Of a stretch of DNA of 64,000 bases, positions 23,341-24,877 are shown in pieces. The notes below the pieces were generated by a model that did not search any database, was not told the origin of the DNA, and saw only the letters and a list, made by a program, of their open reading frames with translations. The DNA comes from Escherichia coli (GTDB lineage Bacteria; Pseudomonadota; Gammaproteobacteria; Enterobacterales; Enterobacteriaceae), in assembly GCF_044324785.1 (NCBI RefSeq), contig NZ_CP172127.1; one strand, given 5' to 3'. The position numbers and the translations under genes are program-made. Positions within the stretch are counted from its first letter, which is position 1. Each line of letters begins with the position of its first letter.

Positions 23341-24057
23341 CTCCACCCAAGTTGCGGAAGAACCACTTTTCATCCGTCGTTGACACAAGAGGGCAGTATC
23401 GCTGCTCTGGCCCGTCAACATGACGTCAACGATAATCTGCTCTTTAAATGGATAAGGCTCTAGCAACGTGAAGGGCGGGCGGGTCTGTCGACCCCGAAAA
23501 AATGCATCGTCGCTTCCTACCCTGATACCCGTGCAACTTCAGGCGGAGCCTTCTCTCCCGGAATTCGAACCACTATCCTGTTCACCTCCCACTGCCTGCC
23601 ACATAAAATGTCGGGGCGGAGAAATAACGCTGACCTCTCCCTCAGTTGAGCTTATGAGCACTGTCCTGCGCGAACTGATGCGGGGGTCTGTATGATAAAT
23701 CTTCCCGCAGGCACAAAAATCTGGCTGGTTGCCGGTATCACCGATATGCGCAACGGCTTCAATGGTCTCGCCGCAAAGGTGCAGACAGCGTTGAAAGATG
23801 ACCCGATGTCCGGCCACGTCTTCATCTTCCGGGGCCGCAGCGGCAGTCAGGTCAAACTGCTGTGGTCCACCGGCGACGGACTGTGCCTGCTGACCAAAAG
23901 GCTGGAGCGTGGCCGCTTCGCCTGGCCGTCGACCCGCGATGGCAAAGTGTTCCTGATGCCGGCGCAGCTGGCGATGCTGATGGAAGGTATCGACTGGCGA
24001 CAGCCAAAGCGGTTACTGACGTCCCTGACATGTTGTAGCCCAGGTCTTCTTCGTTGA
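23341..24057 (+). mobile_element. IS66-family remnant (frameshifted orf1 plus tnpB/orf2; tnpC absent)
   Basis: Short orf1-like start MKISTQVAEEPLFIRR* followed out of frame by ...ALARQHDVNDNLLFKW...; then an intact orf2. No large DDE transposase gene follows. Confidence 0.65.
23692..24057 (+). CDS. IS66-family accessory protein TnpB (orf2)
   Basis: MINLPAGTKIWLVAGITDMRNGFNGLAAKVQTALKDDPMSGHVFIFRGRSGSQVKLLWSTGDGLCLLTKRLERGRFAWP matches the IS66 Orf2 family. Confidence 0.8.
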   Translation: MINLPAGTKIWLVAGITDMRNGFNGLAAKVQTALKDDPMSGHVFIFRGRSGSQVKLLWSTGDGLCLLTKRLERGRFAWPSTRDGKVFLMPAQLAMLMEGIDWRQPKRLLTSLTCCSPGLLR

Positions 24058-24877
24058 TAAAGTTCACATCCAGAGGATGGATACTTCCTGTAGCCCGTAA
24101 TATCGTCGATTCAATATCCTGCACATTCATCGGGATCACCGATGCAAGAAAAGCCCATTGATCAGAATAAGGCTGGAAATTAATATCAACAAAAACGCTT
24201 CCCCCCGATGCACGCGGTCTTTTTTGCAGAGGTAACGCGATAAGATTACCAAATCCTCCTTTTGGCATAGTATCCTGATTAGGAAATAATCGGTCATAAG
24301 AACTCAATTGCAGCTGTCGGGTCCGGCTGCACGTATAGCTAATAATAGCAGTCCCCAGACGGCGAGCTTCGCGGGCCGAAACTCGTGAAGCAAAAAATAT
24401 CCAGACATGCGCTCCCTGACGTGAGCGGGATATTTCCAGCGCAGCAGGTACACTCAGCTCATCACAGGCTCGCATGAACGCGGATGCATCCTTCTGCCAT
24501 TCAGCTTTATCAAAATCAACAGCCAGAAAATAACAGGAATCATCTTCCAGCAACGGATATAACCCGGCAGTATGCGTGCCTGCCAGATGCTGGTAGATGA
24601 CAAGATCAGATACAGGGAGTAACTGACGGTGCGTACAGTCCCCGCATTTTATCCGGGGTTTACCGCATATTCTCGCCTGCCATTCGTTAGCGCAGGCAGG
24701 AGAGTACCCTGATTTGCCGCTGGTTTTACTTTCCCAACGAAGGGCCCATATATCATCACGCCCACGAAACAACCGACGAAATAATGCAACCTTCTCGTCG
24801 GTGGATAATACGGAAACGCGCTGCACAGGGCTCGGCGGTTTACGTCGCCATTCCAAGTAATGAGACCAGACGGGCAT
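24055..24877 (-). pseudogene. Primase-polymerase (AEP/PrimPol-like) replication protein, N-terminal ~273 codons only; 3' part displaced by IS66 remnant
   Basis: Motifs YFLAVDFDKAEW (DxD) and SRQGAHVWIFF (sGxGxH-like) resemble PrimPol domains; the track ORF's last ~65 codons run antisense through IS66 tnpB and are not native. Family call is tentative. Confidence 0.45.

Follow-up and report, generated by a model that had tools for sequence, protein, structure and literature searches.

The IS-excision enhancer (IEE) of Escherichia coli O157:H7 is encoded by iee (ECs1305), which is reported to lie in an SpLE1-like integrative element. The protein has 786 residues, divided into an AEP domain (1-290) and an SF2 domain (291-786) (Calvo 2023, PMC9943667). 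The O157 protein promotes transposase-dependent excision of elements of the IS629/IS3, IS1 and IS30 families (PMC9943667). The AEP domain polymerises DNA in a Mn2+-dependent and error-prone manner and accepts dislocated primers and templates; the C-terminal domain, a DNA-dependent ATPase, shows no unwinding in vitro and serves to hold the protein on DNA (PMC9943667). Full-length IEE joins 3' overhangs that share at least 4 bp of homology, a form of microhomology-mediated end joining; AEP-Dom, a construct with an engineered stop at codon 289, polymerises DNA and cannot synapse two 3' ends (PMC9943667). Chandler et al. have proposed strand switching at microhomologies in the copy-out step of transposition. 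IEE acts on copy-out-paste-in elements (IS3, IS1 and IS30 families) under processing by their transposase; it joins or strand-switches the ends at short microhomologies, with the result that the IS is lost, either precisely or together with flanking DNA.

IEE belongs to a wider set of AEP-containing systems. The excision enhancer appears among the AEP proteins in a figure legend of PMC11724360, and the DUF3987 protein treated in that paper is a demonstrated 5'-3' helicase partnering a PrimPol. Zabrady et al. note that non-CRISPR CAPP_A-like homologues on mobile elements are mostly PrimPol-helicase proteins (PMC8211822).

Within the window, the 64,000-nt stretch of E. coli DNA that was analysed, a remnant of iee corresponding to the first 300 of 786 codons lies on the complement strand at 24040-24926. 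We put at roughly 90% the probability that this feature is an iee pseudogene, forming part of the cargo of a CP4-57/SpLE1-like island that is integrated at serW in an E. coli lineage including SMS-3-5. Up to its breakpoint, the remnant is 93-95% identical at the nucleotide level to the intact genes of O157:H7 EC4115 (L002:10155-12515; product of 786 aa) and STO_Bone1B (L003:10155-12521; 788 aa, WP_061091460.1). The intact gene is found in about 700 other genomes, again at 93-95% nucleotide identity to the window copy. The pseudogene is already annotated, since RefSeq counts this stretch of SMS-3-5 among the pseudogenes, with the remark 'frameshifted; incomplete; missing C-terminus'; the gene is already characterised, and the remnant is of little importance in itself.

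The assignment to iee was made through the EC4115 homologue. In that protein, Y128, D142, D144, S171, Q175, G176, H178, D216, K451 and R735 are exactly where PMC9943667 puts them, and its gene lies in the O157:H7 island adjoining ycdU. Because the EC4115 protein carries all the residues named for IEE at the published positions and has an SpLE1-like location, the window gene is identified as an iee homologue. Synteny agrees with this identification, as the Gp2-type gene upstream, the spacer and the 5' part of iee are together 93% identical to O157:H7 EC4115 at the nucleotide level. The intact protein carries an N-terminal AEP-TOTE (Z1568-like) domain at residues 49-277 and ResIII/DEAD/Helicase_C domains at 423-755. 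Its helicase half is closest to XPB/Rad25 and RadD, which places it in SF2, and its AEP half is closest to the PrimPol domain of MpCAPP. The reading frame of the remnant matches IEE residues 30-300. The window allele is a variant, with about 92% amino-acid identity to O157 IEE over the AEP domain, whereas 98.8% of the E. coli IEEs surveyed in PMC9943667 are more than 95% identical.

What survives of the protein includes a complete AEP (PrimPol-type) catalytic domain, encoded on the complement strand at 24107-24796 (Pfam AEP-TOTE, model positions 1-229 of 230). The first-pass annotation had described a PrimPol-like gene abutting an IS66 remnant, on the strength of a DxD motif (FLAVDFD) and of RQGAHVWIFF, and had recommended profile comparison with PrimPol/AEP models. 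Both parts of that description proved correct. Residues 28-257 of the open reading frame cover the full length of the Pfam PF22548 (AEP-TOTE) model (E=6.6e-100), with a further match to DNA_primase_S (E=5.5e-8), and IS66 tnpB lies at the tail of the frame. The nearest solved structure for the AEP half is the MpCAPP PrimPol domain 7nqd (E=9e-11), to which the catalytic motifs align. FLAVDFD holds the equivalents of D142 and D144 (codons 24517-24515 and 24511-24509), the two metal-binding aspartates; RQGAHVW holds that of H178 (codon 24409-24407), the motif-B histidine; and SSYDRLF holds that of D216 (codon 24295-24293), the third aspartate. The equivalents of Y128, D142, D144, S171, Q175, G176, H178 and D216 are all conserved.

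Comparison with intact homologues, also recommended in the first-pass annotation, located the breakpoint at codon 300 and revealed a second lesion, a 14-bp deletion. The deletion site lies at 24853/24854 on the complement strand, where intact alleles carry AAGCTCATGGGATT (three-way DNA alignment, columns 88-101). The loss falls after codon 24 and shifts the frame. The ATG at 24926, which starts the 786/788-aa protein in intact homologues, is the ancestral start; because of the frameshift, translation from it now stops after 28 codons, opening only a short frame at 24840-24926 (complement strand) that reads MVHKSDSDELAALRAENARLVSLLGMAT before the stop. Intact alleles have the ATG at 24877, previously taken as the start, in another frame, and it was the 14-bp deletion that aligned it with the gene. 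This ATG opens a 341-codon chimera (23852-24877, complement strand) made of 8 codons (MPVWSHYL) that are out of frame with respect to the ancestral gene, IEE residues 30-300, and 61 codons antisense to IS66 tnpB. No clean direct repeat was found flanking the 14-bp deletion; nearby TTGAA copies would give a 15-bp loss.

The larger lesion joins the interior of an IS66-family element to iee codon 300 at 24039/24040, as defined by base-level alignments to an intact IS66 (L004) and to the EC4115 gene. The match to iee stops at 24040 (L002 position 11056), rather than at the 24055 first proposed, and the match to L004 stops at 24039, one base beyond the tnpB stop of that reference element. Microhomology at the junction amounts to 1 unambiguous nucleotide (C), with an adjoining near-match of GTAGC to GTACC. 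The 1.46-kb 3' part of iee has no copy elsewhere in the window, nor does the window contain the tnpC gene or the right inverted repeat of this IS66 element. Because these three segments are missing, the junction is identified as a deletion, which took the whole helicase domain together with tnpC and the right inverted repeat. An IS insertion was considered as its origin and rejected, as the ends fall inside IS66 (at the end of tnpB) and inside iee. The gene had been described as disrupted by an IS66 remnant, and the remnant does abut it, but the disruption consists of this deletion into IS66 and of the separate 14-bp frameshift. The further claims that the frame runs antisense into tnpB and that a C-terminal helicase part is missing were borne out by the 61 antisense 3' codons and by the helicase domains that intact homologues have and the window copy does not. 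Homology in the window stops before the positions of K451 and of the arginine finger R735, both in the SF2 domain that end synapsis requires; with this domain gone, the window copy is a pseudogene of the IEE family and not a functional member.

The IS66-family element is itself interrupted. Its left part (left inverted repeat and 5' tnpA; 21447-21621, plus strand) is 93% identical to L004:3334-3510, and its right part (3' tnpA and tnpB; 23387-24039, plus strand) is 90% identical to L004:3507-4156. Between them, an ISL3-family element is inserted in tnpA (21622-23386, plus strand), with a transposase at 21717-23336 (NF033550, E=2.7e-109) and inverted ends at 21640-21665 and 23345-23366; IS66 homology resumes on both sides of it. 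The tnpB frame occupies 23692-24057 on the plus strand (NF033819 IS66_TnpB, E=3.6e-34). A 1-nt deletion in its last codons removes the TAG stop, and the frame therefore overlaps the iee remnant by 18 nt. The IS66-family element and iee are convergently oriented.

Both lesions are common to about 47-52 of 5,426 complete E. coli genomes. The IS66-iee junction is present in 47 of them, in identical form, and the 14-bp-deleted allele in 52 records, compared with about 700 for the undeleted 145-nt form; the region as a whole shows 100% identity to its counterparts in SMS-3-5 and in some 50 further complete genomes. An identical junction in 47 independent complete genomes means that the lesion is not an assembly artefact. 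The lesions are real and are inherited within one lineage. In strain F1053, IS1 has since removed all of the remnant except 69 nt.

The island around the remnant retains much of its structure. Directly upstream of iee is an Inovirus-Gp2-type (YagK/YfjJ-like) gene (25081-25644, complement strand) that is syntenic with the intact loci, since such a gene and a 154-nt spacer also precede intact iee in O157:H7 and STO_Bone1B. Its Pfam matches are weak (REP_ORF2-G2P, 0.0045; YagK_YfjJ_C, 0.036), and its similarity to K-12 YfjJ is confined to the region of the HUH-like motif (E=0.001). Comparison with CP4-57 weakly suggests that the position after the Gp2-type gene is a cargo slot. Next to clpA, an intact backbone spans 28766-32039. 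It comprises an intact AlpA-like HTH gene (28766-29026, plus strand), a gene for a DUF3987/YfjI-like helicase of 521 aa (29042-30607, plus strand; DUF3987, E=4e-63; phrog_2373 DNA helicase, E=2.4e-40) and a tyrosine integrase gene (30831-32039, complement strand; phrog_1 integrase, E=1.8e-52).

As for the origin of the larger deletion, SpLE1 of O157 carries ISEc8, an IS66-family element, downstream of iee in the same convergent orientation. This arrangement was rejected as the direct parent of the window locus, as only tnpB is similar (88%) and ISEc8 represents another member of the IS66 family. The arrangement immediately ancestral to the junction was found in no genome. There is an outside chance that IEE itself made the larger deletion or, alternatively, that the AEP-only remnant is still translated as a stand-alone polymerase. 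In the former case, an IS between iee and the downstream IS66 would have been removed by IEE-promoted imprecise excision, taking the helicase half and tnpC with it, and the event would amount to the self-inflicted loss of an IS-control gene. The junction lies in an IS-rich stretch, its single nucleotide of microhomology standing beside the near-match given above.

Whether any activity could persist depends on what the remnant still encodes. End joining in vitro needs both domains, and the locus would for this reason no longer be able to promote the excision of ISs; its product could at most be a stand-alone AEP, or short-patch polymerase, begun at the fortuitous ATG at 24877. That this frame is translated and kept for repair or translesion synthesis seems very improbable to us. 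The AEP domain is complete with all its catalytic residues, an SD-like GAGGG lies 6 nt upstream of the ATG, and recombinant AEP-Dom is an active polymerase (PMC9943667). However, the ATG is a by-product of the frameshift, its product would bear a 61-residue nonsense tail, and promoter-like sites upstream do not exceed chance expectation. The ratio of synonymous to non-synonymous differences (24:21, against 25:20 between two intact alleles) does not set the pseudogene lineage apart from intact alleles. The near-identity of the roughly 50 carriers points to recent common descent, not selection, as the cause of retention, and the IS1 event in F1053 has already taken nearly all of the remnant. Two other readings concern the function of the intact gene. 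In one, adopted by the first-pass annotation, it is the island's own primase-helicase (pri-rep-like) replicase; with the gene truncated, the island could no longer replicate and would hence be immobile. This we regard as extremely unlikely. AEP-helicase fusions do act as replicases of plasmids and integrative elements (PMC11724360), in three islands the gene immediately follows one of Gp2/HUH-like type, and its two halves match phage PHROG families that bear the annotations DNA helicase and primase. Against this, the intact protein is IEE, with a function in IS excision, and dsDNA substrates are not unwound by it in vitro (PMC9943667). Among 50,697 phage records, none has the protein at full length. 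SF3/SF4-type helicases are typical of element replicases, whereas the matches to XPB/Rad25 and RadD place the ATPase half of IEE in SF2. In the four plasmids sampled (Pantoea, Massilia, Paraburkholderia, Paracoccus), the gene stands alone, near recombinases, IS elements or toxin-antitoxin genes, and on the Pantoea plasmid, the sole sampled one listing a replication initiator, it sits beside IncFII RepA. Nor is the upstream partner conserved outside E. coli: in Massilia, the protein encoded ahead of the homologue bears no relation to the Gp2-type protein of the window. The adjacent AT-rich tract (24870-26860), suggested earlier as the place for an origin, holds no iteron array, only short two-copy repeats at chance level and one 36-bp palindrome, and Rfam gave no match in the region. 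The island also keeps its DUF3987 helicase, AlpA-like regulator and integrase intact. The first-pass annotation was therefore right that the domain is of PrimPol type and that the gene is non-functional, but not that the gene is the island's replication module; its loss has no evident bearing on replication or mobility, and there is no sign that the lesion immobilised the island.

In the other reading, the primary role of the intact gene is phage or plasmid defence, as a conflict-system effector, with IS excision as a side effect, and the window copy is a decayed defence gene in a slot for defence cargo. This we consider unlikely, if less so than a replicase. The family goes by 'TOTE conflict system AEP' in Pfam and NCBI, the best PADLOC match is to a CRISPR-associated PrimPol model (E=2.5e-147), the slot after yfjJ in K-12 CP4-57 holds the AbpAB anti-phage system, and some distant homologues add a PLD nuclease domain and adjoin Schlafen/AlbA_2 or PIN toxin genes. 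However, apart from the Cas-associated PrimPol models, PADLOC returned only weak helicase matches. The score against the CAPP model NF040561 is 89.4 bits, below the cut-off of 200, and the annotated neighbourhood contains no cas genes. The TOTE label was judged through gene neighbourhoods alone: neighbouring proteins have no TPR-OB (cold-shock domain) or TBP Pfam domains, and no TPR, OB or TBP partner genes occur in the 10 island, plasmid and metagenome contexts examined (the window and nine others). The argument from position is weakened by the marginal similarity of the window Gp2-like protein to K-12 YfjJ. In the literature searched, no report of anti-phage activity was found, and searches for AEP-TOTE or PF22548 returned no papers. 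The family is large (8,259 representative clusters at E<=0.001), and a conflict role of AEP-TOTE proteins wider than IS excision is possible.

Identification of the window feature as an iee pseudogene has a practical bearing on annotation, because a gene that looks like a replicase, with AEP and helicase parts, is in fact an experimentally characterised IS-excision enhancer. The link to IEE is obscured by the names now in use, 'TOTE conflict system AEP domain-containing protein' and 'DEAD/DEAH box helicase'. The SMS-3-5-type lineage would have lost IEE function, and its serW island is crowded with copies of IS3, IS1, IS5, IS66 and ISL3. Such crowding would be consistent with an accumulation of elements where the excision enhancer has gone.

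Set beside known systems, the locus shares parts with several. The mobile-element primase-helicase replicases (pRN1 ORF904, P4 alpha, and AgaPP with AgaPH) resemble IEE in coupling an AEP polymerase to an NTPase domain. Replicases of the pRN1 ORF904 and P4 alpha type use SF3-type helicases (AgaPH: DUF3987) that unwind DNA, whereas IEE has an SF2 domain without unwinding activity in vitro, and this island encodes its DUF3987 helicase in a gene of its own, which is intact. TOTE (TPR, OB, TBP, Effector) conflict systems share the PF22548 AEP domain with the window copy, but the TPR-OB/TBP partner genes of those systems (Aravind, Iyer & Burroughs 2022) are missing here, as in the nine other contexts. 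CAPP (MpCAPP 7nqd/7nqf; PMC8211822) provides the AEP structure nearest to the window copy, which differs in having no cas genes or CRISPR array nearby and no TPR or PriCT domain.

The closest correspondence is with the orthologous O157:H7 IEE (ECs1305, UniProt A0A0H3JF09; Kusumoto 2011, Calvo 2023), with which the window copy shares its upstream Gp2-type neighbour, the 154-nt spacer and the AEP residues. It differs from that protein in being frameshifted after codon 24 and in lacking residues 301-786 and with them all of the SF2 domain. The break at codon 300 gives nearly the same fragment as the AEP-Dom construct with its stop at 289; compared with AEP-Dom, the remnant in the window is further shortened by the 29 N-terminal residues lost through the frameshift and carries a 61-residue tail read antisense from IS66.

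The IS66-family tnpB that abuts the truncated iee (IS-excision enhancer) gene in the window (23692-24057, plus strand) has lost a single nucleotide within its final codons; this deletion removes the TAG stop, and the frame continues for 18 nt into antisense iee. The gene is nonetheless annotated as an intact TnpB of 121 aa (WP_000609175.1). An IS66-family element, ISEc8, also lies 3' of iee in the O157:H7 EC4115 island (L002:13272-15584), in the same convergent orientation as in the window. The tnpB of ISEc8 shares 88% identity with that of the window (23710-24037), and the IS66-iee junction of the window corresponds to the 3' end of ISEc8 tnpB. 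This correspondence could be a coincidence or could mark an old insertion site common to both islands.

Strain F1053, a single genome, carries a more advanced form of decay. Here an IS1A copy adjoins the iee remnant (L005:8000-8071), of which 69 nt remain, annotated as a 'helicase' fragment. This case shows that decay of the iee locus by insertion sequences is still going on.

Among distant members of the IEE family, P0167 and P0216 (L011:2038-4914), of 958-982 aa, have an additional C-terminal PLDc_2 nuclease domain following the AEP and SF2 domains. Both are encoded by solitary genes, and a gene for a Schlafen/AlbA_2 ATPase adjoins that of P0216. A shorter member, P0135 (823 aa), lacks the PLD domain and is encoded next to a PIN toxin gene.

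Upstream of the iee remnant, the window encodes a 607-aa ORF (26854-28677, minus strand; 36% GC), an intact hypothetical protein in RefSeq, for which no matches were found in Pfam, NCBIfam, PADLOC or PHROGs. At a place comparable to that of the 607-aa ORF, on the side of the AlpA-like gene that faces the integrase, the islands with intact iee (O157:H7 and STO_Bone1B) carry ORFs without a name, 545 and 605 aa long. A perfect 36-bp palindrome (26776-26811), with 18-nt arms and no spacer, lies within the AT-rich tract, 43 nt 3' of the stop codon of the 607-aa ORF.

Elsewhere in the window, an IS102 RNA (8269-8505, minus strand; Rfam RF00124, 71.6 bits) coincides with the annotated IS903B copy of the island, where a polysaccharide gene cluster is also surrounded by copies or fragments of IS3-family, IS1B, IS5 and IS256 elements. 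A 2-kb stretch (54001-56000) has 31% GC, against 50-56% in the surrounding sequence. With respect to the Gp2-type/iee block (24040-25644), the AlpA-like/DUF3987 block (28766-30607) lies in inverted orientation. In K-12 CP4-57, the O157:H7 island and STO_Bone1B, by contrast, the AlpA-like/DUF3987 and Gp2-type/iee-side blocks are co-linear.
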